DNA of 41,936 bases from a virus, in IMG/VR virus record IMGVR_UViG_3300040801_000626, positions 1-41,936 of that record. One strand, given 5' to 3'. Shown here in pieces: positions 20,599 through 41,936 of this stretch (the stretch's first letter is position 1; each line of letters starts with the position of its first letter). Below the pieces are notes generated by a model that saw only the letters and a list, made by a program, of their open reading frames with translations, did not search any database and was not told the DNA's origin. The translations under genes were made by a program, and so were the position numbers.

Positions 20599-20809
20599 TC
20601 ATCACATAATCTACGTTTAAATTCGGGTTATCGAGCATCTCGTGTAGCCGCCTCCAGTGGGTGTTGGTAATGGGGTTGGGAGGGGTGAGACAAGGCGATA
20701 CATAATCCTCGTTGTCTACACCCCACTGTACCCCACAAGCGCCGCAATACCAAGTATCAACTACGCGATACTTTTTGCACTTATTGTATTGTAATGGCTT
20801 CTGTCCCAT
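20573..20809 (-). CDS. Small Cys-rich (zinc-ribbon-like) protein (78 aa)
   Basis: CKKYRVVDTWYCGACGVQW ... SPC gives a C-x(n)-C-x2-C pattern. ATG start. Confidence 0.5.
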   Translation of the reverse strand: MGQKPLQYNKCKKYRVVDTWYCGACGVQWGVDNEDYVSPCLTPPNPITNTHWRRLHEMLDNPNLNVDYVMNGSPDEKV

Positions 20810-21890
20810 CTAAAATCGCTAGTCCCCTGTGCAATTCGTTTAAGTGTTCAATGTAACGCGCGCGTATCATAGCCGTGTCCTTATCGTCTATGGATATGTC
20901 GGTGTTACCTTTTTGCCATTTGGTATAAGTTTGACGTGACACACCGATCTCTTCGGCCATGTCTTTGTCTTTCTCACCCGCGTGGTCCTTAAGGATAACA
21001 AGCACGTCATGGTCAAATAAGATTTCACTTTCAACTTCCCCTACCGCCTCGTCTTTGGCCGTAGTTTTCTTAGCGGTCTTTTTGGCCGCAGGCTTAACAG
21101 AACCTTTTGGCTTGTATTCCTGTACGAGATTGTAGATGTACTCTACGGCATCGTTTGCCATGTAGCTACGTACGCCGCGCAGAATTTCAACGTCACTTTC
21201 GTCGAGGCCGAGACGGGGCGCGGCACCATAGGCTAAAATATCGTCGTCGTCCGAGACAATATCGAGGTCGTCATAGACTTGCATGGTGTCATGCTTTTCT
21301 CCGATCTGGTCTTTGATTTTTACGATAACTTCTTTTAGCTCGTCGTCACTTCCATTATCGTCGGCTGTACTGTCGTCGCCCTTAACGTCTTCGATACGCT
21401 GGTCAAGCTCGGCCTGTAATTCGGCCTCTACAATGTTGGCGTTGGATAAAATCTGATTAGGCTTTTTATTGTGTGTCACGGTCTTCCATAGCTCCTTAGC
21501 CATCGACTTCGCGAACTTGGCAACGCCGCCCTCTTTCCAGACGTTACTTTCCGTCGTGTTCTTACCTACCCAATCGTTAGAGAGCCACGGCATATACGGT
21601 TCAACGGCCTCTTCTACCTTATCGTCAACAGCACATTCCCATTCGTTTTTATCTGCCGCCTCTTCATACTCACCGTCCATTAACTCTTGGTTGGTAACAA
21701 CCTTTTGTATCTCCGGTTCAATCATAGAAAAGAGCGTGTTAATAAAAACAAGCTCTGTAGATTTTAGGGCCGCATCTTTTACGTCGTCAATCGTCGGCAT
21801 TTTCTTTTTACGTTTTGTAATCTTTACCTTGGGGTGTTTAAACGTCTCCTCAAAGATCGCTTCCTTCGGTGCATATTCATATATATTCAT
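20781..21890 (-). CDS. Highly acidic 369-aa protein with C-terminal helix-turn-helix
   Basis: RBS AAGGAG before the ATG. D/E runs (DDSTADDNGSDDELKE, DDLDIVSDDDDILAYG). XRE-type HTH near the C-terminus: MAEEIGVSRQTYTKWQKGNTDIS. Confidence 0.7.
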   Translation of the reverse strand: MNIYEYAPKEAIFEETFKHPKVKITKRKKKMPTIDDVKDAALKSTELVFINTLFSMIEPEIQKVVTNQELMDGEYEEAADKNEWECAVDDKVEEAVEPYMPWLSNDWVGKNTTESNVWKEGGVAKFAKSMAKELWKTVTHNKKPNQILSNANIVEAELQAELDQRIEDVKGDDSTADDNGSDDELKEVIVKIKDQIGEKHDTMQVYDDLDIVSDDDDILAYGAAPRLGLDESDVEILRGVRSYMANDAVEYIYNLVQEYKPKGSVKPAAKKTAKKTTAKDEAVGEVESEILFDHDVLVILKDHAGEKDKDMAEEIGVSRQTYTKWQKGNTDISIDDKDTAMIRARYIEHLNELHRGLAILDGTEAITIQ

Positions 21891-21915: not shown

Positions 21916-22053
21916 TTAGTTAAAGCAGGCTTCGGCTCCGTGGAATCCGACGCAAGCTAGGCCGAGAGTAGAGACTAACAGTCCGGCCATAATAATTAAA
22001 GCGATAAAATCAAGCCAATCCTCTGCGGGTAGTTTTAATAGTTTTTTAATCAT
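21916..22053 (-). CDS. Small membrane protein (45 aa)
   Basis: Hand-translated MIKKLLKLPAEDWLDFIALIIMAGLLVSTLGLACVGFHGAEACFN. GGAG lies 6 nt upstream of the ATG. It fills the otherwise empty gap 21891-22045. One TM span. Confidence 0.5.
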   Translation of the reverse strand: MIKKLLKLPAEDWLDFIALIIMAGLLVSTLGLACVGFHGAEACFN

Positions 22054-22267
22054 TACTGTCTCCGTCTTGTGGGAAGTGGTAAGCGTCACTCATGTCGGGG
22101 TGCTTAACACGATAGTACCCGGGTTGCATTATAGCCTCTAGGGTTTGTATAGGCCGGGACGCGCCAATAAACACTTGGCCGATTTGCACCCCGGTAAACA
22201 GGACGCATAGCCGTGTCGGCTCTCCCTTCGGATAGATCGTTATGTTTTTATTTAAGTAAAATTTCAT
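22046..22267 (-). CDS. Hypothetical protein (73 aa)
   Basis: ATG start with an ATGA overlap to the upstream stop. No motif recognised. Confidence 0.55.
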   Translation of the reverse strand: MKFYLNKNITIYPKGEPTRLCVLFTGVQIGQVFIGASRPIQTLEAIMQPGYYRVKHPDMSDAYHFPQDGDSND

Positions 22268-22470
22268 TTTAGTTCCCCTTCTTTTGTGGCGGATTTAATT
22301 AGGGATTTATGAAGTCTCTGCAATTTATCAATTTTAAAAATATCATAATACTCGCCGTATATAATATTGTGTAAGGCAACCCTTAAGTCCTCTGTTATTA
22401 TATAGGCGTCACCTACCTCCGGCACCTCGTTATCGTTGGCCGTTGATTTCCTCCGGTATTCTTCTTTCAA
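22264..22470 (-). CDS. Hypothetical protein (68 aa)
   Basis: ORF track. TTG start with GGAG 9 nt upstream; the start is uncertain. Confidence 0.45.
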   Translation of the reverse strand: MKEEYRRKSTANDNEVPEVGDAYIITEDLRVALHNIIYGEYYDIFKIDKLQRLHKSLIKSATKEGELK

Positions 22471-22612
22471 TACAGTAAGCTCCGTTGTCGGCGTATTTTA
22501 CGCAACTGTATTTATCGTAGAAATTATTAAAGCCTATCCATGATACAAGCACTATAACCACCAATGCTATTAGCGCGAGTATTAAAACGGCACTTTTATC
22601 TTGACTATCCAC
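22430..22612 (-). CDS. Small single-pass membrane protein (60 aa)
   Basis: ORF track 22430..22651. I prefer GTG 22612 because AGAGGAG lies 7 nt upstream. TM span AVLILALIALVVIVLVSWIGF. Confidence 0.5.
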   Translation of the reverse strand: MDSQDKSAVLILALIALVVIVLVSWIGFNNFYDKYSCVKYADNGAYCIERRIPEEINGQR

Positions 22613-22883
22613 TATATAACTCCTCTTTCCTAATTTTAAATTGAATACCACACACCATAATAGGGTTTCCTTGCTTTAGGTGGTCAATCATTGCCTCTAC
22701 TGAGTAGAGGTTACACGTTCCCCCTCTAGCGATTTGTATGATCTCGTCATACTCATTGTTATAGAATGTCTCAAATTGCTCGGCATTTAGGTACACGCAC
22801 CTAACACGGCAATTAGCCGTAAACATGTTACGCCTAATGTTCATAGCGTTTTCAAATGTATATAGCTCGGGGTTCTGTAGCAA
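22605..22883 (-). CDS. Hypothetical protein (92 aa)
   Basis: TTG start with AGGAGA 8 nt upstream. No motif recognised. Confidence 0.5.
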   Translation of the reverse strand: MLQNPELYTFENAMNIRRNMFTANCRVRCVYLNAEQFETFYNNEYDEIIQIARGGTCNLYSVEAMIDHLKQGNPIMVCGIQFKIRKEELYSG

Positions 22884-22895
22884 CGGTTTGTCTCC

Positions 22896-22950
22896 TAAGG
22901 TCTTATTCGGTTAGCTTATCGGGGTAATAGGCTAACCTGATAAAACCTTA
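22896..22950 (-). promoter_or_regulatory. Compound intergenic stem-loop (two helices separated by a 7x7 internal loop)
   Basis: Plus strand TAAGGT(22896-22901)...GGTTAGC(22909-22915)...GCTAACC(22931-22937)...ACCTTA(22945-22950). The outer arm overlaps the stop codon of 22948-23388. Confidence 0.45.
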
Positions 22951-23388
22951 TTTTTTCGTTGGTTCTATCCTCCAAACACGTACCCCACCTTCGACCGGGT
23001 ACACGCGGAATACATAGTCGTCGCCAAGCTTTTTCTGGGCGTTACGACGCGCGCTATTAAGGGCCATGCGTTTACGCTTAACGGCCTCTGTGTATGCTCT
23101 CTTCTTTTCTTGCTCGTTTTTGTAGTTGCCTTCAACGGTAACAGGGAAAAACGCACTCTCCCCTACTTCCATAACGTCAAAGTCATATTTAGACTGTCCG
23201 AACGTTGCCACTTCCGGCATTGGTACGCCTTTTTCAATGGTATGGCCTGCGAGAGTTTTCCCGGTGTCTTTAGCCGTTCCTTTCTCTTCTACTACATCCG
23301 GCTTAGCGGCCTGTGTAGCCTTCTTAGGGGCTACCTTTTTTGGGGCCGGGGTTTTCTTAGCGGCTGGGTTTTTCTTAGCTTTAGTCAT
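22948..23388 (-). CDS. Lys/Ala/Pro-rich (histone H1-like) putative DNA-binding protein, first gene of the second leftward operon
   Basis: Start moved from TTG 23412 to ATG 23388 (AAGGAG 8 nt upstream), because the TTG lies only 10 nt from the -10 of the predicted promoter. N-terminus MTKAKKNPAAKKTPAPKKVAPKKATQAAKP. Confidence 0.65.
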   Translation of the reverse strand: MTKAKKNPAAKKTPAPKKVAPKKATQAAKPDVVEEKGTAKDTGKTLAGHTIEKGVPMPEVATFGQSKYDFDVMEVGESAFFPVTVEGNYKNEQEKKRAYTEAVKRKRMALNSARRNAQKKLGDDYVFRVYPVEGGVRVWRIEPTKK

Positions 23389-23421
23389 TGTTTTTGCTCC
23401 TTTGTTAAACAAGTTTATCCA

Positions 23422-23451
23422 ACCTTAACGCCTTTATATATCGGGTGTCAA
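23422..23451 (-). promoter_or_regulatory. sigma70-like promoter (TTGACA-N18-TAAGGT) for the middle/replication operon
   Basis: Minus strand: TTGACA (23451-23446), 18-nt spacer, TAAGGT (23427-22). The same hexamer pair occurs in the promoter at 27258-27286. Lies just downstream of the terminator. Confidence 0.5.
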
Positions 23452-23492
23452 TAACTTTATTTACACTATCCTTTCTCTCCCGCCGGACATGC

Positions 23493-23517
23493 AAAAACAG
23501 GCGCTACATGCGCCTGT
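23493..23517 (-). terminator. Rho-independent terminator closing the early ORFan operon
   Basis: Minus strand ACAGGCGC-ATGTA-GCGCCTGT followed by TTTT: a perfect 8-bp GC-rich stem plus a U-tract, about 20 nt after the stop of 23539-23709. Confidence 0.8.
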
Positions 23518-23538
23518 CTGTACTGGTATAATGTTAAA

Positions 23539-23709
23539 TTATAATGCGTCGTCGTAAGGTCGGCTGGCCCTCCTGATCTGCGCTTGCCTTTCCCTCTCTA
23601 AACGACGTTTTAAAGCTTGCCTGTACTCCGTCTCTCTTTCAATTTTGGTATGTAGCGCGTTTATATCGCGGTTAATACCTAACCATTCTCGCAACCAATG
23701 TTTTATCAT
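23539..23709 (-). CDS. Small basic coiled-coil ORF (56 aa)
   Basis: Hand-translated MIKHWLREWLGINRDINALHTKIERETEYRQALKRRLERERQAQIRRASRPYDDAL. Purine-rich AAAGGA sits 7 nt upstream. Last ORF before the terminator; below the track cut-off. Confidence 0.5.
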   Translation of the reverse strand: MIKHWLREWLGINRDINALHTKIERETEYRQALKRRLERERQAQIRRASRPYDDAL

Positions 23710-23713
23710 AACG

Positions 23714-23866
23714 TTATCCTTTCCCTCCTATATAATTATCGCCATTGGCCAAGTGTTTTGATAAAGCGTCAATGTTATACGCGGGGTTAGCGGCTTCACC
23801 CTCCCCGTAGTTGTCGGCAATCCAATTTATCACGGCCTGCTTAATATGTTTTTCAGTTAAAGTCAT
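23714..23866 (-). CDS. Small ORF (50 aa)
   Basis: Hand-translated MTLTEKHIKQAVINWIADNYGEGEAANPAYNIDALSKHLANGDNYIGGKG. Preceded by repeat copy A and AAAGGA. Confidence 0.5.
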   Translation of the reverse strand: MTLTEKHIKQAVINWIADNYGEGEAANPAYNIDALSKHLANGDNYIGGKG

Positions 23867-23888
23867 TTTGCAATCCTTTCTTTTCTAA

Positions 23889-23932
23889 TTAACAGGCTAG
23901 TAACGCCCCTAAGGGCGCTACAGGTCTGTTAA
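23889..23932 (-). repeat. Structured intergenic repeat, copy A (core)
   Basis: Plus strand TTAACAGGCTAGTAACGCCC-CTAA-GGGCGCTACAGGTCTGTTAA. The stop codon of 23929-24291 lies in the right TTAA arm. Confidence 0.9.
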
Positions 23933-24291
23933 TTAGTAGCTACACCCCGCGCTTTTTCGATTGTCCCGCGAATTTCCTTAATACGAAACCACAAGAGATT
24001 AGCTTTTTCTTCCGCGTGACTTCCTACGACGGAACCGCCTGTTAATTCAAGTCGTGCGTTTTTATTAAGAACTTCCCAGTACTCCACAAGCTGTTTTTCC
24101 GCTATTTCCAATGCCCCTAACAATTCAGGTGCGGAGGATATTAAGTCAATGTTAGCTTCTGTTTCGTTCCCGTCTTTCTGTTGAATAGCTTGTGCAATAT
24201 GTTGATTACGGCCCGCAAACACAACAGGATATTTCCCGTTAGCTTTAATATTTCTATGCCAAGGCCCCGGCGTGTGTTTTGACTGTGTCAT
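23929..24291 (-). CDS. ORFan early protein (120 aa)
   Basis: ORF flanked by repeat copies A and B. The TPGPW ... ISSAPELLGALE motif pair resembles widespread uncharacterised phage proteins (from memory). Confidence 0.7.
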   Translation of the reverse strand: MTQSKHTPGPWHRNIKANGKYPVVFAGRNQHIAQAIQQKDGNETEANIDLISSAPELLGALEIAEKQLVEYWEVLNKNARLELTGGSVVGSHAEEKANLLWFRIKEIRGTIEKARGVATN

Positions 24292-24367
24292 TTTATTTTC
24301 CTTTGTTTTATCCCGTTACCATTAACAGGCTAGTAAGGCGCATATAAACGCCTTACAGGTCTATTAA
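24292..24367 (-). repeat. Structured intergenic repeat, copy B (leader + core 24322-24367)
   Basis: The core stem is GTAAGGCG-CATATAAA-CGCCTTAC. The minus-strand leader GGTAACGGGATAAAACAAAGGAAAATAAAATG is identical to copy D. Confidence 0.9.
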
Positions 24368-24925
24368 CTAATAGCTATGGCCTGCTTTATCCAGCCTATC
24401 AATATATCGGCTCAATAAAGCCCCTAGCTTTAAAAGGGCGCTGGATTGCGCGTTTTCGAATAGGTCATAATATCCGTCGTCCGGCTCCCTAACGTCCCCC
24501 GCGCAAGTTGGTGCGGAATATTGCCATTCGGCCAAGGCTTCTATACTTCGACTATCCCCGCGTTCATATAACTCAGCGCAAAGGGAAAACATAGCCCCCA
24601 TGGCGCTCCCCCATTTATCTCCGCTATCCTCACCCAATTTATATTCGGCTTTCAAATCTTGATAAGAATAAAAGTCATTCCTCACCTCTAAATTATAGCC
24701 CCTGTTTTCAAGCTCTTTATATAGCGGGTCAAATTCGGTTGCCTTGGCCTTGGTTCGCTTCATAAAGCTTTTATGTGCCGTGCCATGTTGTCCGGTACGG
24801 GCATAACACCCGATGGTGCCATCACGCTCTTTATGTGTCGGGAATAGGGCTAGTATCTCCCTTTGTCCGTCGGGGTATTTAGGCTTTACAAACAATATGG
24901 GGGTTTTATGCGTGTCTTTTTTCAT
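24368..24925 (-). CDS. ORFan early protein (185 aa)
   Basis: ORF flanked by copies B and C with RBS AAGGAG. No family recognised. Confidence 0.7.
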   Translation of the reverse strand: MKKDTHKTPILFVKPKYPDGQREILALFPTHKERDGTIGCYARTGQHGTAHKSFMKRTKAKATEFDPLYKELENRGYNLEVRNDFYSYQDLKAEYKLGEDSGDKWGSAMGAMFSLCAELYERGDSRSIEALAEWQYSAPTCAGDVREPDDGYYDLFENAQSSALLKLGALLSRYIDRLDKAGHSY

Positions 24926-25011
24926 GTTCTTATTCTCCTTTGTTTTGGCGTCCTATACAATTATAGGCTAGTAAGGCCGCGCCACTATAGCATGGCCTTA
25001 CAGGTCTTTAA
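24926..25011 (-). repeat. Structured intergenic repeat, copy C (diverged leader + core 24961-25011)
   Basis: The core stem is GTAAGGCC-(15-nt loop)-GGCCTTAC, flanked by AGGCTA and AGGTCTTTAA. The stop codon of 25008-25784 lies inside the arm. Confidence 0.85.
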
Positions 25012-25784
25012 TCGTAAGAGGGTGTTTCTGGTATGTTACTTTCTAAAAAGTCCCGCACGTATTTTATAGTGTCATTATCCGCGCTGTCCTCTCCATATAT
25101 CAAGAAAGAATAAGCCTTAACCGTTTTATCTATCCAGTCGCCACGTTCAAAGGCGTATCTATCCAAATCATAAAAATATTCTGTATCGTTAATTTTAATA
25201 CAACCACATAAAGGGCTATCATAAAAGTAATGGGTAAAATCCCATTTTATGCTATCAAGGTCTATGCCCTCCGTGCCCCAAGCGGCTTTTAAGGCTGTTA
25301 CATTAACGATAATTTCAGCATAATCGCCTTGGGAGTAACCCCGAATAGACACGCGCTCTATTTCATCTTTAGGATATAATTCAAGGTTATAGGCATCTAA
25401 ATACTCGTGGTTAAGGTCTTCATAGTTTCCAAGGCTTGGCATAGCGTCAAGAAAACCTAACTCATTTTTAACTTCACGCACTAACGTATCACGTCCCCAT
25501 GTATCAAAGCCGGGAACCTCTTCATTATTAAAGTCTCTTATCTCTTTAAGCCATGAACGCATGGCTTGCGTATCGCCTTTTAACTCTACGTTGTCCCTTA
25601 CATCGTCAAGGGCTATATTACCGTTATCAATGTAATAGTAAACGTCCTTACTACCATATCGTGTCGTGGCATTGGCCATGTGTGTAAAGTTTTCATTAAA
25701 CTCGAATTGCGCTAAGGAACTATCATAGCTTACATGTAATTCAATGTTTATGCCTGTACTGCTTTTATCATAGTTATTTATCAT
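25008..25784 (-). CDS. Acidic ORFan early protein (258 aa)
   Basis: Flanked by copies C and D. My hand count gives 51 D+E against 23 K+R. No family recognised. Confidence 0.7.
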   Translation of the reverse strand: MINNYDKSSTGINIELHVSYDSSLAQFEFNENFTHMANATTRYGSKDVYYYIDNGNIALDDVRDNVELKGDTQAMRSWLKEIRDFNNEEVPGFDTWGRDTLVREVKNELGFLDAMPSLGNYEDLNHEYLDAYNLELYPKDEIERVSIRGYSQGDYAEIIVNVTALKAAWGTEGIDLDSIKWDFTHYFYDSPLCGCIKINDTEYFYDLDRYAFERGDWIDKTVKAYSFLIYGEDSADNDTIKYVRDFLESNIPETPSYD

Positions 25785-25858
25785 TTTATTTTCCTTTGTT
25801 TTATCCCGTTACCATTAACAGGCTAGTAACGCCCTTAGGGGCGCTACAGGTCTATTAA
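25785..25858 (-). repeat. Structured intergenic repeat, copy D (leader + core 25815-25858)
   Basis: The core stem is GTAACGCCC-TTAG-GGGCGCTAC. The leader is identical to copy B. Confidence 0.9.
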
Positions 25859-26689
25859 CTAAACGCTTTCTATCTTGGCTTTAATCTCTTCCCTTGATAA
25901 CGTTGCACTATCTGTAAAAGTGTAACACTTCTTATCTTTCTTAAAGTACCAGTTAACAATATCACCCGTTACACGTTCGGACACATGAAACACGGAACCT
26001 TCCCAACGGCAAGGCGGTAACACCTCTAAAGCATATTCATACTCGCTAGGCTTAATCTGAGAAGGTTCAGTTTTATGGCTGTTTTCATAGTCTGCCAATA
26101 GCTTATCAACCTCTTTTTGGGATACAACTTTACGTCCTTTGTTTTCTGGTTCCTTTAGGTAATCCTCTAAAGTTTTAAACCCGTTATAAGCTACACGTTC
26201 AACACCATCAAAGGTCGTAAAAGTGTGAGTTTGGATACCCGCGTTATATGTGCCTTTACTAGGGTCAATAATCCATCTTGTGGGCTTAGTGGGGTCAATG
26301 GCCATGTTATCCCCTACTAACTCCCATACTGCTACATAGATATTGTCAAAGTCCACGCCACGCCCGGGGCCGCTTATGCCTCTATCAAATATCCACCCTC
26401 GGGCCGCTCTTCTCTCTGTAGTGCCTTTTAGGTGCGTTAGGGGTAGTGCGTCCTCTAAGCTTCCCGAGTAGCTAAAGCGCCCGCTTCGGCTTAGGTGAAA
26501 ACTTCCGCCCTCCCCCGTATCACTAAACATATTAGTCTGGGCGCGGTCTTCATAGACGTGCGTCACCCGCGCATATTGGCCGTCTTTATCCTTGATAAAA
26601 TCCCCAAGCTGTACTCCGCCCGATAAGTTGTAACGCGCTCTTTGTCTCTCGCTTAATATACCTTGGTTAAATTCGCTTACATTATTCAT
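25859..26689 (-). CDS. ORFan early protein (276 aa)
   Basis: Flanked by copies D and E. No family recognised. Confidence 0.7.
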   Translation of the reverse strand: MNNVSEFNQGILSERQRARYNLSGGVQLGDFIKDKDGQYARVTHVYEDRAQTNMFSDTGEGGSFHLSRSGRFSYSGSLEDALPLTHLKGTTERRAARGWIFDRGISGPGRGVDFDNIYVAVWELVGDNMAIDPTKPTRWIIDPSKGTYNAGIQTHTFTTFDGVERVAYNGFKTLEDYLKEPENKGRKVVSQKEVDKLLADYENSHKTEPSQIKPSEYEYALEVLPPCRWEGSVFHVSERVTGDIVNWYFKKDKKCYTFTDSATLSREEIKAKIESV

Positions 26690-26766
26690 TTTATATTCTC
26701 CTTTGTTTTATCCCGTTACCATTAACAGGCTAGTAACGCCCCTAAGGGGCGTTACAGGTCTATTAA
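26690..26766 (-). repeat. Structured intergenic repeat, copy E (leader + core 26722-26766)
   Basis: The core stem is a perfect 10 bp, GTAACGCCCC-TAA-GGGGCGTTAC. The leader is GGTAACGGGATAAAACAAAGGAGAATATAAAATG. Confidence 0.9.
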
Positions 26767-26768
26767 CT

Positions 26769-27209
26769 CTATTCGTTACACTCTGATGTATAGCTAAGCA
26801 TATCTTTTTGGATTAACTGAGTGAATTTGTTAACCGCTTGGGCATGCTCAAGGTCATAATGTCCCTCACCATACCCGCCTCCATTATCGTAGTATTTTGT
26901 ATGTACACTAAACCGCGCTTTGTTTCCTATATCGCTAGTGTTTTCATTTACTATGTAACCATAATGACGCGTAGCTCTTTGTTTAGGGCGCTTATACTCT
27001 GCAACGGTTATAGTGCCTCGTGTCTTTACAAGTTTTTCAAGGTATCTCTTACATTTTGCCTTCTCTGCGCTTGTAAGCTCAAAGCACACAACACTAAAGG
27101 CCATACCATTTTGGTTTACCTCTGTTTCTGTCCCAATCTCTTTATCAAACCATTCTATAAAGGTATCGGCTTGGTGTCCTGTTAGTTCTTGCGTCTCTAA
27201 ATTTGTCAT
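26769..27209 (-). CDS. ORFan early protein (146 aa), first gene of the early operon
   Basis: RBS AAGGAG (AAAACCAAGGAGACTAAGAACATG). Lies about 45 nt downstream of the predicted promoter. Confidence 0.7.
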   Translation of the reverse strand: MTNLETQELTGHQADTFIEWFDKEIGTETEVNQNGMAFSVVCFELTSAEKAKCKRYLEKLVKTRGTITVAEYKRPKQRATRHYGYIVNENTSDIGNKARFSVHTKYYDNGGGYGEGHYDLEHAQAVNKFTQLIQKDMLSYTSECNE

Positions 27210-27257
27210 GTTCTTAGTCTCCTTGGTTTTAACGTTTCATATAACTTACTAACTAGC

Positions 27258-27286
27258 ACCTTATAGCTTTGTTCCGTAGCTGTCAA
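27258..27286 (-). promoter_or_regulatory. sigma70-like early promoter (TTGACA-N17-TAAGGT), leftward
   Basis: Minus strand: TTGACA (27286-27281), 17-nt spacer, TAAGGT (27263-27258). Consensus -35; the -10 keeps T1, A2 and T6. Confidence 0.55.
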
Positions 27287-27778
27287 AACTTTTTTACACG
27301 TATTTAGTATTTAACGCTTTACACCTCTTTACCCCCTAAGATGGGTTTACAAAGTGTAAGGGCTAAAAGTTTAATTAATTCAATGGGTTGCTTGTGGGGC
27401 TTTGAGTTTATTAGACGGGGTTAAACGGCTTATCCAATCTTTAGAGATTGGTACAGCCTTACCCCTCTAAACTCTTAAATGTTTGAGCGATTAGTCCGCT
27501 GTTTACAATTTGTCTAAAGTTTAAACCATGGCCTGTTTGGTAATTAAGGATAGTAAGGACAAGGAATAGAGAGAGGGGACTATTGGGAAACCCTTCCCTC
27601 CTTTTGTGTCCGTTATCGCACACGCCTGTAAGGTGCTGTTATCCTTGCAGTTCTTGGCGCTTGTTTACGTAATATACGTTATCACACTAGCACTATTCAA
27701 TGATTTCAATAGTTTAGCCCTCCCCTAGCATGATATAGGGGTTTAAAAGAGTGACTTTCACGATATGGAAACGACCCC

Positions 27779-27803
27779 GGGGGGTGGGGGGCGGGGAGGG
27801 GGG
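27779..27803 (+). other. G-quadruplex-forming tract (G6-T-G6-C-G4-A-G6)
   Basis: Read directly: GGGGGGTGGGGGGCGGGGAGGGGGG, preceded by CCCC (27775-27778). Four G-runs of at least 4 with 1-nt loops. Confidence 0.7.
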
Positions 27804-27899
27804 CTGATGCGCCGCGAGTAAAAGACCCGCCAATACCCCATCTCTACACATGCTATAAAAAATAATAGAAAGGGGTTTACACTTTGGCAACTTTACACT

Positions 27900-27929
27900 T
27901 TGTTAACTCTAAGGCCCTAAAAATATAAT
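27900..27929 (+). promoter_or_regulatory. sigma70-like promoter (TTGTTA-N18-TATAAT), rightward
   Basis: Perfect -10 TATAAT at 27924-27929 and TTGTTA at 27900-27905. The -35 overlaps the second TTTACACTTTG repeat. Confidence 0.5.
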
Positions 27930-28009
27930 AGGTCTCGCGCACATATACGTTTTTTACATAACAGGCATATAAAACCATGGGGTAGACGAGGGGTGAAAAT
28001 GGAGGTACT

Positions 28010-28636
28010 ATGACGGCGCTGAAAACACTCAATAAGGAGACCACTATGAATGCTAAAAGTAAAAATGCCGCAAAGACAAAAGAGAACCCTAAAATGGCCA
28101 AAGGTAATCAAGACCCGGTTGGCTCAAAGGACAACGGACCCGAGGGTGTCACCGCCAATGAGAAGGTGCAGGACAGACCGACTTTTACCAAGGAAGAATT
28201 GGAAGCCACAACGGAGAAAGACCTCCGGGCCTTTTGTAATGACAATGAGATCAACCTCCACGGACGTGACCGCCACGAAGACATTGTAGCGACTATCCTT
28301 GCGTGGCAAGAGGGTAAAGCTGAAGACGGAGAAGTAACGGTTAGTGATATGGCCGAAGCGTTAAACGAGGCTGATGCTGATAGTGTTATTGATGTTGTTA
28401 AACATCTAGTGGCGCGTGTTGGTAAGCTAGAAGATGATGTTAGAAACGCCCATGCTGTTATTGAGGCTCAGGAGATTGCCCTTAAGAACGCTCACGAAAC
28501 GTTAAACGACTATACGAGGGAAGTTAACCGTATAAAAGGGCGTATGAGTAGTAAGGTTGCCGGAGGCTCAAATAATAACTTGAAAAAAGTACCAGACAGT
28601 GATAGCCTACACGGAAAGATTGATAATCTCTCTTAG
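28010..28636 (+). CDS. Monocistronic early(?) protein with HeH/SAP-like motif and coiled coil (208 aa)
   Basis: ATG 28010 has GGAGG 4 nt upstream; the alternative ATG 28046 has AAGGAG 6 nt upstream. FTKEELEATTEKDLRAFCNDNEINLHGRDRHEDIVATILAWQEG looks like a Rho-N/SAP/HeH DNA-binding helix pair. The C-terminus is helical. Confidence 0.7.
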   Translation: MTALKTLNKETTMNAKSKNAAKTKENPKMAKGNQDPVGSKDNGPEGVTANEKVQDRPTFTKEELEATTEKDLRAFCNDNEINLHGRDRHEDIVATILAWQEGKAEDGEVTVSDMAEALNEADADSVIDVVKHLVARVGKLEDDVRNAHAVIEAQEIALKNAHETLNDYTREVNRIKGRMSSKVAGGSNNNLKKVPDSDSLHGKIDNLS

Positions 28637-28685
28637 GCCATATTGCTACGTAGCGGGTATTTACCCTTTCTCTCTTTAAAGGCCG

Positions 28686-28733
28686 ACAACCCCTCAAGCT
28701 TTTTCCTTGTTTTTCGCTTGAGGGGTTGTTTTA
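28686..28733 (+). terminator. Strong Rho-independent terminator
   Basis: A perfect 14-bp stem, ACAACCCCTCAAGC (28686-28699) with GCTTGAGGGGTTGT (28716-28729), followed by TTTATGTTT. Confidence 0.8.
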
Positions 28734-28736
28734 TGT

Positions 28737-28764
28737 TTGACACGTAGTATGAGGTCATTATACG
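28737..28764 (+). promoter_or_regulatory. Possible sigma70-like promoter (TTGACA-N16-TATACG)
   Basis: TTGACA at 28737-28742 and TATACG at 28759-28764. Lies directly after the terminator and faces the antisense side of terS. Confidence 0.35.
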
Positions 28765-28790
28765 CTTTGTAGGACCAATAGGGGGTATAC

Positions 28791-28907
28791 ATGACGATCA
28801 AAGACGGCGAAGGCAACGACATACCATTATCCAGCGTACAACCCGCTAGTGGCTATCCTGTGCGCGACGCTAACGATAACATCATCCAGGCACATATAGC
28901 CCCCTAA
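28791..28907 (+). CDS. Possible 38-aa ORF
   Basis: Hand-translated MTIKDGEGNDIPLSSVQPASGYPVRDANDNIIQAHIAP. Its initiation context AGGGGGTATACATG resembles that of the capsid gene (AAGGGGTATATTATG). Very short and unsupported otherwise. Confidence 0.3.
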   Translation: MTIKDGEGNDIPLSSVQPASGYPVRDANDNIIQAHIAP

Positions 28908-28919
28908 GCTTGCTATTAT

Positions 28920-29408
28920 CTAGTTCATAAATTCCCAATCCTCGTCGTCTTCCTCGATCACCTCGGCCTCTATGATAGGCTTATGGTGGTCGAGGTAGTA
29001 GGAGCGAGAAGCTAAGGCGGCACGTTCCCTACCAGCGTTAAGGGCTGTTGTAATAGCTTTGTCGGCGGTAATGGTGTGGCTCACCTCTATTTTATCCCCA
29101 TAGTCCTTAGAGCGGCGTTTAGAGAGTAACCATTTAATATTATCAGATATAACCTTGGCCATTTTAGGGTCCGTATGGCCGTATATAGAGTGGTTATCTA
29201 TCTCTACCAGCGCGTCGGCCATGCTATCCGTACCGCGCTCATAAGCGTCTTCGTACATAGCGTTAAGGGACTCGTCGTTTTTTATGTATTCGTTAAAGAC
29301 CGCCGTAGTTATGTTAGCCTCGTCGCAGGCGGCGGTCACTGTTTTACCGAGGGATATTTTATCTATTGCGAACATAACGCATTTTGTGTAATCGTAAAGT
29401 TGTGTCAT
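28920..29408 (-). CDS. terS: Terminase small subunit, encoded on the opposite strand from terL
   Basis: N-terminal HTH ISLGKTVTAACDEANITTAVFNEYIKNDE. Also YEDAYERGTDSMADALVEI and DNIKWLLSKRRSKDYGDK, matching the widespread terS family whose signature is ...D-x-RKWLLSK-x-PK-x-YGDK (from memory). Confidence 0.7.
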   Translation of the reverse strand: MTQLYDYTKCVMFAIDKISLGKTVTAACDEANITTAVFNEYIKNDESLNAMYEDAYERGTDSMADALVEIDNHSIYGHTDPKMAKVISDNIKWLLSKRRSKDYGDKIEVSHTITADKAITTALNAGRERAALASRSYYLDHHKPIIEAEVIEEDDEDWEFMN

Positions 29409-29542: not shown

Positions 29543-31075
29543 ATGAGTTACCTCAATATAAAAACAGAGGAGCAACTCGCCACTTTTATAGCCGGGTTTT
29601 ATGCGGACCCCTACGGCTTTGTAATGGGTATATTTCCTTGGGGGGAGCCAACTTTGCCCGACGGCTCTCCCAACCCCCTTAAAGATAAAAAAGGCCCTGA
29701 GCCATGGCAGAAGGAACTCCTCGTTGATCTCGGAGTGCATATACGAAACAATTTAGAATTGACGGCCATGGAGCTTGATATGTTCGTATGGAAGTCTGCC
29801 GTCGCCTCCGGCCACGGCGTAGGTAAGTCCGCTATTGTAGCGTGGCTTATTTTATTTTTTATGAGTACCCGGGTAGACACGAGGGGGGCCGTGACGGCCA
29901 ACACCCAATATCAGTTAGAGGATAAGACATGGCCGGAGCTTGCCAAATGGTATAACTTGGCTTTAAATAAACATTGGTTTGAGTGGACGGCCACGGGAAT
30001 ATCTTTTGGAGCATACCCAGATGAAAAGAAGAAAAACTATAAAATTAGCGCGGCTACCGTTTCCAAGGACAACACCGAAGCTTTCGCAGGACTTCACAAC
30101 GAAGGCAAAAGTGTCATTGTCATTTTCGACGAGGCCAGCGGTATTCACCCCAAAATATGGGAGGTCTCCGAGGGGGCTTTAACAGACGGTGAGGCTTTCT
30201 TTTTTGCCTTTGGAAACCCGACACAACCGGAAGGGGAGTTTGCCGACTGTTTCGATAAACACGCAGACCTATACTATAATAGGAGCGTAGATAGTAGGGA
30301 CGTTTCCCATACCAACAAACAAGCTCTACAGAGCATGATTAAAAAATACGGAGAAGACAGTGACGAGATTAAGGTGCGTATCAAAGGGGAGTTTCCAAGT
30401 CAGTCTTTTAACGGCTTTATTGGCACCGACGGGGTACACGCCGCGACACAACGAGAGCTTATCGACGACCCCGGTGCCGCACTTATCATGGGTGTTGACG
30501 TTGCAAGGTTTGGAGACGATAGATCAATTATTGGCTACCGCCAAGGCCGGGACTTCAGGTCAAGACCGTGGAAGGCATTTAGGGGCTTGTCAACGGTACA
30601 ACTCGCCAACATTGCAATGGCCGAAGCCGACATACATAAACCAGACGCTATAGTTATTGAGTCCACCGGACCCGGGGCCGGGGTTATCGACATTATGCGC
30701 GATAGGGGGTATAAAATCATTGAGTGCCACCCAGGGGCGCGGCCCTCTCAGGACTTTGATTTATTTGTAAATGTAAGAGCGTGGAATTGGTCCCGTATGC
30801 GGGATTGGCTATATGAGGTAGGGTGTATACCAGACCACCCAGAATTGTTTAAAGAGTTAACAACTATTTTGTACGGCCTAGATCGCCACGAGCAACGGAT
30901 TAAGATGGAAGCAAAAGAGGATATGAAGAAAAGAGGCTTGCCTTCCCCAGACATTGCCGATATGCTGTCCTTGACATTTTTCGCTCAGATTGCGCGTAGG
31001 GATAGAACCAAAACGTTGCGCCCCAACATGAACCAAAATAAAGCTATAACGGAATATAATGAGTTATCGTATTAA
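29543..31075 (+). CDS. terL: Terminase large subunit
   Basis: Walker A-like ASGHGVGKS and Walker B VIVIFDEASGI. C-terminal RNase H-like nuclease region (IMGVDVARFGDDRS). 510 aa. Confidence 0.9.
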   Translation: MSYLNIKTEEQLATFIAGFYADPYGFVMGIFPWGEPTLPDGSPNPLKDKKGPEPWQKELLVDLGVHIRNNLELTAMELDMFVWKSAVASGHGVGKSAIVAWLILFFMSTRVDTRGAVTANTQYQLEDKTWPELAKWYNLALNKHWFEWTATGISFGAYPDEKKKNYKISAATVSKDNTEAFAGLHNEGKSVIVIFDEASGIHPKIWEVSEGALTDGEAFFFAFGNPTQPEGEFADCFDKHADLYYNRSVDSRDVSHTNKQALQSMIKKYGEDSDEIKVRIKGEFPSQSFNGFIGTDGVHAATQRELIDDPGAALIMGVDVARFGDDRSIIGYRQGRDFRSRPWKAFRGLSTVQLANIAMAEADIHKPDAIVIESTGPGAGVIDIMRDRGYKIIECHPGARPSQDFDLFVNVRAWNWSRMRDWLYEVGCIPDHPELFKELTTILYGLDRHEQRIKMEAKEDMKKRGLPSPDIADMLSLTFFAQIARRDRTKTLRPNMNQNKAITEYNELSY

Positions 31076-40761: not shown

Positions 40762-41936
40762 ATGCCGCAGTTATATAGTAGTAAAATATCGGCAGGGGCT
40801 TTACGCTCCAATACTCCCCCAATGAACTTTTCTATCACCCCGGACGCTTACGGTGCCGGGGTAGGGAGGGCTTTAGGCGCGGCGGCTGAAGGGGTAGGGC
40901 AAGCGGCAGATCAGTTCCGTATATTAGCGGAAAAAGAAAAAGCCCAAGAGGTTGCTACTAGCGTTGCCACTTTCGATGCAACCCAAGAGTTATTAGAGGC
41001 GCGGAACGAAGTAGGACCCGGCGCGGAGGGGTATGCTGAGAAGGCTCCTACTATATATCGGGATGCGGTAGAAAATCATGTAAGGGGTATAAAGGACGAT
41101 AAAGCGCGTAGTGAAACGCGGGACAGTTTATTACAACGTTTGCCAAGCGTTATGTCCCAAGCGGCGACGTATGAGTTTACTACAAGAGCCGAATACTCAA
41201 AATCGCAATCCGACGACGCTATAAAGGCTATCGAAAACCGCGTTATGCTAGACCCTGTTAATTACAGCACCCACCTAGAGGACGGCTTGCGGGTTATTGA
41301 TACGTCGCAAGGGGTTGTAGAAACAGCCAAAAGTAGCATGAAAGCTACCTTTAAAGAAAATATGGCAAGTACCTACTTTGGTAGTAGGTTACAAAAAGCC
41401 ACAACTTTACAAGAGTTTGACGGGTTGGCCTTAGAGTTAGCGGAGGGTAAAACACGGGATTGGACAAAAGAGTTTAGTCCTGAAGGGTTACAACGTACTT
41501 TAAACGCTATAGGGGTTGCTAAGAAAACATACCAAAACGAGGTACGATCTGCGGCGAGTTCTGCCGTACAAATGTTAGAAGGCCGCGTCGAGGATTTAAT
41601 ACCTACAAATGAATTGGCCAACGCGCAGGCGACGGTTAAACAACTTGGTAACGACCCAGAGAGTATAAATGTAAAGCGCCGTATGGCTCGGGTTATGCGT
41701 AACCAAGAGATCATTAAAGGGGTACAAAGATTGGCCCCCTCCGAGCAACGCACCCTGCTTAACCAGCGTAACGGAGGCCCTAACTTATCCTACCCGGGAT
41801 TGCCTCAAAGGGTATCGTCTGCGGTGGATAATGCGGCCACTAATTTTAACGTACCCGCTTCTTATCTAGGGGCTATGGTTAGCCGGGAATACGGTCAATA
41901 CCTAAAGCCTACTAAGGTAGCCAAAGATAAATTTAA
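40762..41936 (+). CDS. N-terminal part of the wrap-around internal virion protein (continues at 118..2062 of the circular map)
   Basis: ATG 40762 lies 3 nt after the upstream stop. I translated it by hand to the window end without meeting a stop (MPQLYSSKISAGALRSNTPP ... GLPQRVSSAVDNAATNF...). It is not in the ORF track because it has no stop inside the window. Confidence 0.8.
   Translation, partial: MPQLYSSKISAGALRSNTPPMNFSITPDAYGAGVGRALGAAAEGVGQAADQFRILAEKEKAQEVATSVATFDATQELLEARNEVGPGAEGYAEKAPTIYRDAVENHVRGIKDDKARSETRDSLLQRLPSVMSQAATYEFTTRAEYSKSQSDDAIKAIENRVMLDPVNYSTHLEDGLRVIDTSQGVVETAKSSMKATFKENMASTYFGSRLQKATTLQEFDGLALELAEGKTRDWTKEFSPEGLQRTLNAIGVAKKTYQNEVRSAASSAVQMLEGRVEDLIPTNELANAQATVKQLGNDPESINVKRRMARVMRNQEIIKGVQRLAPSEQRTLLNQRNGGPNLSYPGLPQRVSSAVDNAATNFNVPASYLGAMVSREYGQYLKPTKVAKDKF
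41820..41936. repeat. Right copy of the 117-bp terminal direct repeat
   Basis: Identical to 1-117. Confidence 0.95.

Follow-up and report, generated by a model that had tools for sequence, protein, structure and literature searches.

REP-type intercistronic hairpins are repeated intergenic palindromes that stabilise the upstream mRNA, and the SAS/ESAS elements of mycobacteriophages are conserved motifs located directly upstream of the start codons of a subset of phage genes. In T4-type phages, the PeSL cassettes are built from stem-loop motifs repeated between uncharacterised ORFs in hyperplastic regions; PeSLs are short conserved intergenic motifs and have been proposed as recombination points at which unrelated genes are swapped (PMC2839356, PMC4122927). 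The early (class I) region of T7 comprises the host RNA polymerase promoters A1-A3, genes 0.3-1.3, five RNase III sites, at which the early polycistronic mRNA is cut, and the terminator TE (PMC3867540), and the T7 early genes include anti-defence functions. The leading regions of conjugative plasmids hold arrays of small unidirectional genes on the part of the DNA that enters first, and they have been documented as islands of anti-defence genes (PMC11541004).

The block studied here (positions 23539-27209 of the window, i.e., of the whole stretch of 41,936 nt that was analysed) lies in the genome of a previously unknown tailed phage, a podophage of about 41.8-42 kb. With the early region of T7 it shares tandem host-type promoters, a run of small genes that are probably early, a structured RNA per gap and one closing terminator, and one of its products, p258, has a structural homologue in the class I region of a T7-like phage. 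However, no phage RNA polymerase was found in PHROG and Pfam scans of most large ORFs of the window, no gene of the block is homologous to T7 genes, and the intercistronic elements additionally carry a conserved Shine-Dalgarno leader. As with the PeSLs, the element is repeated between the ORFs of a hypervariable slot and one gene, p185, appears to travel with it, whereas PeSLs are composite terminator/promoter motifs and the elements described here have a ribosome-binding leader and no sigma-70-like promoter; moreover, the block belongs to a 42-kb podophage and not to a T4-like myovirus, and there is no sequence similarity. The features of REP hairpins and of SAS/ESAS motifs are here joined in one unit of about 75-80 nt, which is limited to a single operon. 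Plasmid leading-region-type arrays contain homologues of both p276 domains; unlike these islands, the phage operon would be read from double-stranded DNA promoters, without ssDNA promoters, and the block itself contains no methyltransferase, SSB, Psi or Ard gene.

Layout of the operon and its place in the lineage

The block is laid out as a predicted leftward transcript of seven cistrons, which runs from one or two sigma-70-type promoters to a hairpin-U5 terminator. The genes and signals are listed below.

27900-27929, rightward: site TTGTTA-N18-TATAAT, back to back with the distal leftward promoter-like site
27862-27898, minus strand: distal promoter-like site, GTGTAAAG-TTGCCA-N17-TATTAT, matching 10/12 consensus positions
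27258-27299, minus strand: proximal operon promoter, GTGTAAAAAAGTT-TTGACA-N17-TAAGGT (hexamers and spacer at 27286-27258)
26769-27209, minus strand: p146, ORF of 146 aa, with the Shine-Dalgarno sequence AAGGAG upstream
25859-26689, minus strand: p276, ORF of 276 aa
25008-25784, minus strand: p258, ORF of 258 aa
24368-24925, minus strand: p185, ORF of 185 aa
23929-24291, minus strand: p120, ORF of 120 aa
23714-23866, minus strand: p50, ORF of 50 aa
23539-23709, minus strand: p56, ORF of 56 aa, 4 nt after p50
23493-23521, minus strand: intrinsic terminator, (AG)ACAGGCGC-AUGUA-GCGCCUGU(UU)-UUU
23422-23466, minus strand: third promoter of the same type, GTGTAAATAAAGTTA-TTGACA-N18-TAAGGT (23451-23422)

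The sequence-only reading had described seven ORFs of these sizes, bounded by TTGACA-N17-TAAGGT at 27286-27258 and a canonical terminator at 23517-23493; all seven are found on the minus strand, and both signals are present. The pattern TTGACA-N15-19-TAAGGT occurs twice in the window, both times on the minus strand, with a chance expectation of 0.03, and the upstream motif GTGTAAA-N1-8-TTG(A/C)CA occurs at three leftward sites, all on the minus strand, as opposed to 0.01 expected. The proximal promoter was not listed by a generic promoter scan because its -10 hexamer, TAAGGT, matches TATAAT at 3/6 positions only. The terminator, with a G+C-rich stem of 10 bp followed by U5 (23517-23493), folds with -19.7 kcal/mol and z = -2.8 in a 56-nt context and was also missed by a generic scan, probably because the stem is able to extend into the U run. 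Just beyond it, the putative third promoter opens a conserved unit that begins with p154, a gene kept in relatives, and forms the outer limit of the variable block.

In the comparison with 70 related loci, p154, p369, SNF2 and TerS are conserved, and none of the seven ORFs was found by tblastn. The slot proteins form 129 clusters, of which five are common to different lineages and three of these five are flank genes. Judged by these sequences, the block is the hypervariable slot of the lineage, the only one with complete turnover between relatives, and its flanks are conserved; no recognised anti-defence domain was found in the equivalent slot of the relatives. The block is best explained as a promoter-proximal operon and accessory-gene slot of this phage lineage that would be transcribed by the host polymerase. 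It had been proposed to be the first region transcribed by host RNA polymerase, of which the discrete unit with host-type promoters stands, while the early timing is something we infer from promoter type and position. Near-full-length relative contigs stop 0-7 kb upstream of TerL, adjoining the slot, which is compatible with an end-proximal, first-entering region.

The lower G+C content that had been put forward as a mark of the block (37-40% against 53%) shrinks to a modest and patchy dip. With 42.6%, as opposed to 46.9% for the rest of the window, the block falls into the lowest 5% or so of equal-sized windows, at about 2 SD; low GC3 is limited to three genes (p146, p258 and p120), and the codon adaptation suggested as a further check is normal, the CAI of the block genes, with the core genes as reference, showing no change.

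Products of the block and their relatives

In searches with the block products, no Pfam match exceeded the threshold and NCBIfam, PADLOC and PDB gave none, apart from one insignificant Cas2-like match in PADLOC (E = 0.04) with no domain passing. In sequence and fold searches, no product was similar to any characterised anti-defence, host-takeover or defence protein, and the outcome named beforehand as refuting the anti-defence reading, a confident match to ordinary metabolic enzymes or to structural proteins, did not appear in the PDB fold searches of p258 and p276. The view that none of the products can be assigned to a family was thus mostly right with respect to these databases, but the description of the block as seven ORFans was overstated: four of the seven (p276, p258, p146 and p120) have clear homologue families, which are seen in the early regions of other, unrelated phages, and p185 has a single homologue.

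p276 consists of two domains, a beta-rich N-terminal and a DUF1419-like C-terminal domain, each with stand-alone small-protein homologues in plasmids and phages. The C-terminal domain matches Pfam DUF1419 with 21.1 bits (E = 3.7e-4), below the gathering threshold of 23 bits, and 5/12 members of the p276 family match it with E between 3.7e-4 and 0.01. By sequence it is therefore related to DUF1419, p276 itself being no curated member of that family, on which a literature search found no papers. The AF2 model of p276 is confident (pLDDT 87.5) and has no fold match in the PDB. Full-length homologues with 42-51% identity are located near the early-operon start in three contigs of unrelated phages, where they adjoin the TerS-divergent start of the operon. 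Homologues of both halves occur in plasmid leading-region-type arrays of small unidirectional genes, of which five contexts were inspected. Orphan MTases are present in 4/5 of these arrays, and PsiA, ParB, an antirestriction gene and ArdC-like/SprT-like proteins are also among the neighbours. In a Providencia F-type plasmid, the order is ParB, PsiA, the p276-domain homologue, an N6-methylase and an antirestriction protein, followed by SLT, TraM and TraY, and in plasmids of Pseudomonas, Photobacterium and Phaeobacter the homologues are found near orphan MTases and ArdC-like or SprT-like genes.

p258 is strongly acidic, with 51 D+E and 23 K+R, exactly as counted by hand before, a net charge of -28 and a pI of 4.29. 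All 18 members of its family are acidic (pI 4.05-4.6), and neither p258 nor these members match a Pfam family at E <= 1. Its homologues stand in extended arrays of short early ORFs, and the structural homologue, which is ORF45 of the T7-like phage PHB02, is encoded within the class I region, upstream of gene 1. p146 unites two small domains (residues 1-64 and 68-146) that elsewhere occur as separate proteins of 60-105 aa, and it has no Pfam, PDB or PADLOC match. p120, which carries the HTPGPW motif, had been suspected of belonging to a widespread uncharacterised phage family on account of its TPGPW, and this is borne out by phrog_1273 (E = 4.7e-15, residues 1-116 against profile positions 3-99 of 103); homologues are found in Aeromonas phages and Acidithiobacillus megaplasmids. 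p185 is a near-ORFan with one homologue of 55% identity among 5.8 billion clusters, located in an otherwise unrelated marine phage contig. No homologue was detected for p50 in Pfam, PHROG and homologue searches, or for p56, a small, basic (pI 10.5) protein rich in charged residues, in Pfam and PHROG.

A doubtful but possible interpretation is that these are dispensable accessory genes of the moron type, with no link to host defences, which would serve superinfection exclusion or the tuning of host physiology, or would be selfish ORFs tolerated at the least constrained place, the repeats between them being local expression signals. The normal codon adaptation agrees with this, as do the lack of a match to any anti-defence family and the complete turnover among relatives, according to which no single gene is essential. 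However, the p276 domains recur in plasmids beside orphan methylases, antirestriction genes and PsiA, full-length p276 homologues stand near the early-operon start in the three contigs of unrelated phages, and the p258 family is acidic throughout, with an early position in a T7-like phage; functions in the entry phase therefore fit better. The block probably carries host-takeover or anti-defence genes, the case for an anti-defence role being circumstantial.

The repeated intercistronic element

The main new result concerns the spacers, as every long intergenic gap of the block contains one copy of an element of about 75-80 nt. Its parts are a G+C-rich stem-loop of 9-10 bp (hairpin 1), located 10-13 nt past the stop codon, a second short hairpin (hairpin 2) and an A-rich leader with an AAGGAG Shine-Dalgarno sequence. 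It occupies the first five junctions of the block.

26690-26768, minus strand: copy 1, 103 bits, -25.8 kcal/mol, z = -4.4; stop codon, AGACCUGUA, 10-bp hairpin, UACUAGCC, 7-bp hairpin, AAAACAAAGGAG, ATG
25785-25858, minus strand: copy 2, 102.8 bits
24926-25007, minus strand: copy 3, 66.8 bits, the most divergent; hairpin 1 longer, hairpin 2 different in sequence (CCUAUA/UAUAGG), pairing retained in both
24292-24367, minus strand: copy 4, 100.1 bits
23867-23928, minus strand: copy 5, 68.6 bits; hairpin 1 intact, hairpin 2 lost

Within the window, the five copies are all confined to the block, with 0 expected; three of them have an identical 37-mer in common, and the z values of their folds range from -2.9 to -4.4. 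The stem of hairpin 1 measures 9-10 bp in four copies; in the remaining one it is 13 bp long but broken by single unpaired bases in both strands. The loops of hairpin 1 have 3-6 nt, and no U tract follows. Hairpin 1 is 94% paired and contains compensatory pairs, with double changes in 5/10 pairs (8 distinct element copies from 3 genomes). No Rfam family matched the element, and a promoter scan found no promoter-like site inside the five copies, the best manual match reaching about 7/12 consensus positions. The cassette punctuation claimed for the block is thus real and, with five structured copies and compensatory changes, far stronger than had been proposed.

The element directly follows the p185 homologue in L082 and L083, where the other neighbours are unrelated, and also occurs in the relative L025; other relatives have analogous hairpin-CTAGC-SD junctions. 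Beyond the window it was found in only two other genomes, scans of the IMG/VR, metagenome and GTDB collections yielding chance matches only, and p185 in L082 is therefore the single clear case of horizontal spread. It is also the one case that bears on the end points of a cassette, no relative near enough for breakpoint mapping having been found.

The elements lie in the intercistronic gaps of a predicted host-transcribed early polycistronic mRNA, and the T7-like layout, in which a terminator closes a series of small early genes behind host-polymerase promoters and every gap has a structured element, would accord with RNase III sites as in T7, at which cleavage would give monocistronic mRNAs. 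This is nevertheless unlikely, as the stems of 9-10 bp with loops of 3-6 nt are at or below the minimum of about 11 bp stated for efficient cleavage, the ideal substrate having 22 bp (PMC3867540). The short perfect hairpins also differ from the irregular T7 substrates of about 20 bp, and the lack of an Rfam match points in the same direction.

It is quite unlikely that the elements control transcription, be it as partial terminators, as attenuators or as polymerase-modifying antitermination RNAs like put of HK022 and nut of lambda, and in this way set an expression gradient or a temporal order along the operon. With two adjacent stem-loops of about 60 nt, the elements recall the put RNAs, a CAGAC lead-in is common to the elements and the true terminator, and hairpin 1 resembles a terminator stem minus the U tract. 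However, it is this U tract that is missing downstream of hairpin 1, known put and nut sites are single in their operons and lie close downstream of the promoter, not at each junction, and conservation within the element is highest in the Shine-Dalgarno leader with the 37-mer, which points to translation.

In the explanation we prefer, the stem-loops would work at the RNA level, by stabilising 3' ends and/or by serving as processing points, and would turn a polycistronic early mRNA into stable units, and the common leader would supply every cassette with an equally strong translation start. The identical 37-nt repeats may in addition offer homology for recombination, through which cassettes of a gene plus its junction could be gained, lost and exchanged; such exchange would account for a slot that is wholly different between relatives and for p185 with the same element in an unrelated phage.

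p258 and the role of the block

The acidity of p258 had suggested a DNA mimic like Ocr and ArdA that blocks type I restriction enzymes, and this likeness is limited to the charge (net -28, 18/18 family members acidic); the position of its gene in the putative early region and that of its structural homologue among the class I genes of a T7-like phage would accord with it. Such a function is very unlikely in view of the unmatched Pfam models of Ocr and ArdA, a confident AlphaFold model (pLDDT 88.7) whose best PDB match in Foldseek has E = 0.53 and TM-scores <= 0.16 and which thus appears to resemble neither protein, a charge density of -0.11 per residue, lower than that of Ocr and ArdA, and the motif GYSQGDY, invariant across the family, which hints at an active site or a site of specific binding and not at an array of charges. 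The predicted fold was found only among uncharacterised phage proteins.

As an anti-defence island, the form in which the block was first described, it retains the discrete transcription unit with host-type promoters, the slot with turnover, the recurrence of its gene families in early regions of unrelated phages, the plasmid contexts of p276 and the punctuation; the description is weakened by the missing match to known anti-defence proteins, the small G+C dip and the fact that most products are not ORFans. The candidates most likely to have such a role, according to sequences and models, are p258, conserved in its acidity and with a putative new fold, and p276, apparently a fusion of two domains of plasmid arrays. 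The products are small and not enzyme-like, and their families occur only in the early regions of phages and in plasmid arrays of the leading-region type; from this we infer that host proteins or host defences are their most likely targets, within the first few minutes of an infection. Overall, it is moderately probable that the block is an accessory slot read by the host polymerase, in which swappable cassettes of a gene plus its junction would provide the phage lineage with products aimed at host proteins or defences.

Genome organisation and the variable block

The first 117 nt of the window recur exactly at its end (1-117 = 41820-41936), which makes the contig a circular assembly with a true length of some 41,819 bp; an ORF starting at position 5 runs on from the window's end. 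The plus strand carries a podophage-type structural module with TerL, portal, protease/scaffold, major head protein, a 914-aa tail protein and internal virion proteins, and the minus strand a replication module with a PrimPol-helicase, a family A polymerase, an Enc34-type SSB, a DUF2800 PD-(D/E)XK nuclease and an SNF2 helicase. Most of the large ORFs were scanned against PHROG and Pfam, and no RNA polymerase was found among them; no tRNAs were found either. Judged by its sequence, the phage is new: a nucleotide search of 50,697 phage records gave no match for the block or the structural module, PolA shares at most 35% identity with isolates (e.g. Rhizobium, Ralstonia and Brevundimonas phages), and uncultured relatives in IMG/VR reach 53-57% for PolA and 54-72% for TerL. 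The features referred to below are as follows:

20781-21890, minus strand: p369, conserved in relatives with 29-34% identity
22948-23412, minus strand: p154, first conserved gene past the variable block, with a DUF7303 domain (E = 4e-7)
23493-23517: terminator, a 10-bp G+C-rich stem followed by U5
23539-27209, minus strand: the block, seven ORFs named by their length in aa (p146, p276, p258, p185, p120, p50, p56), with p276 at 25859-26689 and p146 at 26769-27209
27210-28009: about 800 nt with no convincing ORF, between the putative early operon and the rightward p208 gene
27258-27286, leftward: TTGACA-N17-TAAGGT promoter preceding p146
27898-27862, leftward: third promoter-like site, TTGCCA-N17-TATTAT, matching 10/12 consensus positions
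28920-29408, minus strand: TerS
29543-31075, plus strand: TerL, divergent from TerS

The same divergent layout of TerS and TerL is seen in the closer relatives, and in the distant ones (L031-L040) TerS lies downstream of TerL on the same strand.

The sequence-only reading had described an early operon of seven unassignable ORFs between a promoter and a terminator and had proposed it as an anti-defence island. All seven minus-strand ORFs, the promoter and the terminator were found where it placed them, and its hand count of charged residues in p258 proved exact. The pattern TTGACA-N15-19-TAAGGT occurs exactly twice in the window, both times leftward, as opposed to 0.03 expected occurrences, one copy preceding p146 and the other lying directly after the terminator, ahead of p154, so that the unit from p154 onward has the same promoter type as the operon. 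GTGTAAA precedes these two sites and the third one (three sites, all leftward, 0.01 expected), which makes it probable that the operon is served by a tandem pair of promoters some 600 nt apart. The TTGACA-N17-TAAGGT pattern is not conserved in the loci of the relatives. For p154, which is conserved in L002, L012 and L025, the upstream promoter reads GTGTAAA-TTGACA-N18-TAAGGT and the N-terminal tail is Lys/Ala/Pro-rich and histone-H1-like (AKKNPAAKKTPAPKKVAPKK). Residues 297-335 of p369 gave weak, sub-threshold matches of the helix-turn-helix type (RstR-like and AimR-like, E = 0.002-0.2), and p369 is a possible candidate for the regulator of the GTGTAAA-type promoters.

The stretch at 27210-28009 contains back-to-back promoter-like sites (27862-27929), 4 of the window's 12 copies of TTTACAC/GTGTAAA and a G-rich tandem, GGGGTGGGGGGC GGGGAGGGGGGC, at 27781-27804. 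Contigs of relatives often end near the equivalent place, and the stretch could contain a packaging site, an origin or a genome terminus.

A lower G+C content had been put forward as a mark of the block. The difference is real, with 42.6% as opposed to 46.9%, which places the block in the lowest 5% or so of equal-sized windows, but the compositional argument is weak, since only p146, p258 and p120 are low in GC3 (0.35-0.37 versus 0.45-0.52) and the codon adaptation index is indistinguishable from that of 15 core genes (0.75-0.82 versus 0.76-0.81). A foreign origin was accordingly not adopted on grounds of composition.

The position of the block is hypervariable. A tblastn search with the window's proteins recovered p154, p369, p113, p120b, p193, SNF2 and TerS in 70 related loci, and none of the seven block ORFs in any of them. 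When 122 ORFs from the slot of about nine relatives were clustered together with the window's proteins, 129 clusters resulted, of which five were common to different lineages, three of these being conserved flank genes. A Pfam scan of the 122 ORFs found no known anti-defence gene; the few matches were to DUF932, HTH_3 and DUF7303, with sporadic single ones to unrelated families (Laminin_G, Ig and others). Many near-full-length contigs of relatives end 0-7 kb upstream of TerL, adjoining the slot, which is compatible with, but not proof of, a genome end there and hence first entry of the slot region. Short-period tandem repeats are present in early regions of three relatives (L014 2-215, 9 nt; L012 5238-5408, 9/15 nt; L029 2679-2950, about 44-62 nt), either as coding low-complexity repeats or as iteron-like arrays.

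A structured element in the gaps between the block genes

The gaps before p276, p258, p185, p120 and p50, which are 62-82 nt long, each contain one copy of an element consisting of a hairpin, in most cases a second hairpin, and a Shine-Dalgarno leader. All five occurrences of the anchored pattern AGACCTGTA-N10-35-TTACTAGCCT in the window fall in these gaps, against an expectation of 0, and an identical 37-mer that covers hairpin 2 and the leader is common to three of the copies. Hairpin 1, which is G+C-rich and 9-10 bp long, begins 10-13 nt after the stop codon in each copy, hairpin 2 (6-7 bp) is present in four of the five, and the folding z-scores range from -2.9 to -4.4. Despite sequence differences between the five copies, 94% of the cells of hairpin 1 are paired, as opposed to 36-52% in slid controls, with double changes at two pairs.

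Further copies were found with a covariance model. The marine phage contig L082, which shares nothing else with the window, has two of them (E about 6e-7 and 1e-3), the first immediately behind its p185 homologue and the second behind the gene that follows. The p185-homologue/element junction is also present in a TARA contig (L083), and the relative L025 has two identical copies. Across eight distinct copies from three genomes, compensatory double changes affect 5 of the 10 pairs of hairpin 1, no position is paired in fewer than six of the eight copies, and pairing holds in 76 of the 79 scorable cells. The early operon of L082 opens with a perfect TTGACA-N17-TATAAT promoter (2400-2535) and includes a DUF4121 protein.

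Other relatives have hairpin-CTAGC-SD junctions of their own. A near-identical leader, AGGAGAGAAGCC-ATG, is shared among relatives, each of which has it ahead of four to six small early genes (L025 1987-3212; L013 3891-4676; L014 285-2304). In L025, a perfect 90-nt intergenic repeat with an ACCTGT-hairpin-ACTAGC core is found at 3688-3777 and 4063-4152. Seven pattern scans, of IMG/VR (three), metagenome contigs (two) and GTDB genomes (two), gave 46 matches, all judged to be chance: they were single copies with neither a visible hairpin nor a homologous flank in the 17 that were read, or failed the covariance model. Rfam gave no match at E <= 1 in 22000-29000.

The arrangement resembles the early region of T7 in its host-polymerase promoters, its small early genes, the structured RNA found in every gap and the single terminator; the T7 early precursor carries five RNase III signals (PMC3867540). 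The minimum quoted for RNase III is about 11 bp (PMC3867540), whereas the stems of the element are shorter. Given this length, and the conserved translation-initiation region at the end of each element, we favour roles in which the element would act as a 3'-stabiliser or processing hairpin and as a standardised strong ribosome-binding site. A role as recombination joints is also plausible, since the elements supply repeated homology in a genome that encodes a nuclease and an SSB of its own; the PeSLs of T4-like phages (PMC2839356, PMC4122927) are an analogous case. Unlike PeSLs, of which a promoter half is the defining part, the elements contain no sigma-70-like promoter. The only direct hint that cassettes are mobile comes from the p185-plus-element unit in L082. 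An integron attC array was set aside as unlikely, as no integrase was present among the ORFs scanned (most of the large ones), and attC sites are cassette-specific imperfect palindromes, whereas the elements are direct repeats, nearly identical to one another, with a Shine-Dalgarno leader at their end.

Families of the block proteins

Searches of Pfam, PHROGs, NCBIfam and PADLOC with all seven products returned only the functionally uncharacterised families phrog_1273, of which p120 is a member, and phrog_25822, together with a sub-threshold DUF1419 match. Searches of PDB sequences with single sequences and the A1 profile gave no match. A single homologue of p185 was found among 5.8 billion clusters, and p50 and p56 have no detectable relatives. 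Like p276, p146 is a fusion of two small domains, each of which is also known as a small protein of its own from other phages and plasmids; in a 399-aa protein (P0056), a homologue of the N-terminal domain of p146 is fused to a 330-aa extension.

The 17 homologues of p258 (28-39% identity), none of them annotated, form with it a family of about 18 sequences with an invariant GYSQGDY motif and an acidic character throughout (pI 4.05-4.6). They occupy early regions of Vibrio-type phages, on long contigs within arrays of dozens of small unidirectional ORFs. The distribution of homologues points to marine gammaproteobacteria as candidate hosts. Structure prediction and comparison had been suggested for the products, and AF2 models were confident for p258 (pLDDT 88.7, pTM 0.77) and p276 (pLDDT 87.5), both without a PDB match in Foldseek (best E for p258, 0.53). 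In BFVD, the p258 model matched two uncharacterised phage proteins: A0A345MCU4 (E = 1e-16), which is probably the homologue from Vibrio phage R01, and a protein of 224 aa from the T7-like Pasteurella phage PHB02 (E = 8e-10). The latter is almost certainly ORF45, because no other ORF of that region has this length; ORF45 belongs to the class I early region and is located upstream of the gene for RNA polymerase.

Full-length homologues of p276 (n = 11, 42-51% identity) share many invariant residues and, on the three longer contigs of other phages that were inspected, lie among the first genes of a terminase-divergent operon. The N-terminal domain occurs in Ruegeria phages and in plasmids of Phaeobacter, Azonexus and Mycobacterium, the DUF1419-like C-terminal domain in Vibrio phages and in plasmids of Photobacterium, Providencia, Pseudomonas and Polaromonas. 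On a Providencia F-type plasmid, the homologue is flanked by ParB/PsiA on one side and by an N6-methylase and an antirestriction gene on the other, with SLT, TraM and TraY right after. Plasmids of Pseudomonas, Photobacterium and Phaeobacter have orphan methyltransferases for cytosine or adenine within 2 kb of the homologue, and in two of these plasmids the array also includes, at a greater distance, ArdC-like or SprT-like genes. Exactly such gene content characterises the leading regions documented as anti-defence islands (PMC11541004), and p276 ties phage early regions to plasmid establishment regions.

Possible functions of the operon

Phage counter-defence genes are kept in early hypervariable regions, and most have no detectable homology to anything known. 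A host-takeover or anti-defence role of the block is a reasonable prior, short of demonstration, because of the promoter type and position, the complete turnover of the slot between relatives, the confinement of the gene families to early regions of phages and to plasmid arrays of the leading-region type, the conserved acidity of the p258 family and the lack of enzyme-like or structural homology; no product was linked to a known mechanism. Overall, we regard it as probable that the block is an early operon of cassettes, hypervariable and with functions in the entry phase, and the chance that at least one block gene is a true anti-defence factor as slightly below even. A more far-reaching proposal, in which early genes of phages are exchanged as cassettes with the stem-loop/RBS junctions as joints and p258 and p276 represent new anti-defence families with new folds, appears unlikely. 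Under this proposal, an ORF plus its 3' junction would be a portable unit, moved by short-homology recombination between otherwise unrelated marine phages and arriving ready for stable, strong early expression, similar in function to an integron array for counter-defence genes but without an integrase.

The locus yields three well-defined testable items, p258, p276 and the junction element. The confidently predicted fold of p258 is absent from the PDB and is also predicted for the early-region protein of the T7-like phage PHB02. The junction element, which is compact and backed by covariation, may explain the expression and shuffling of such genes in small podophages, where the shuffling would parallel that by PeSLs in T4-like phages.
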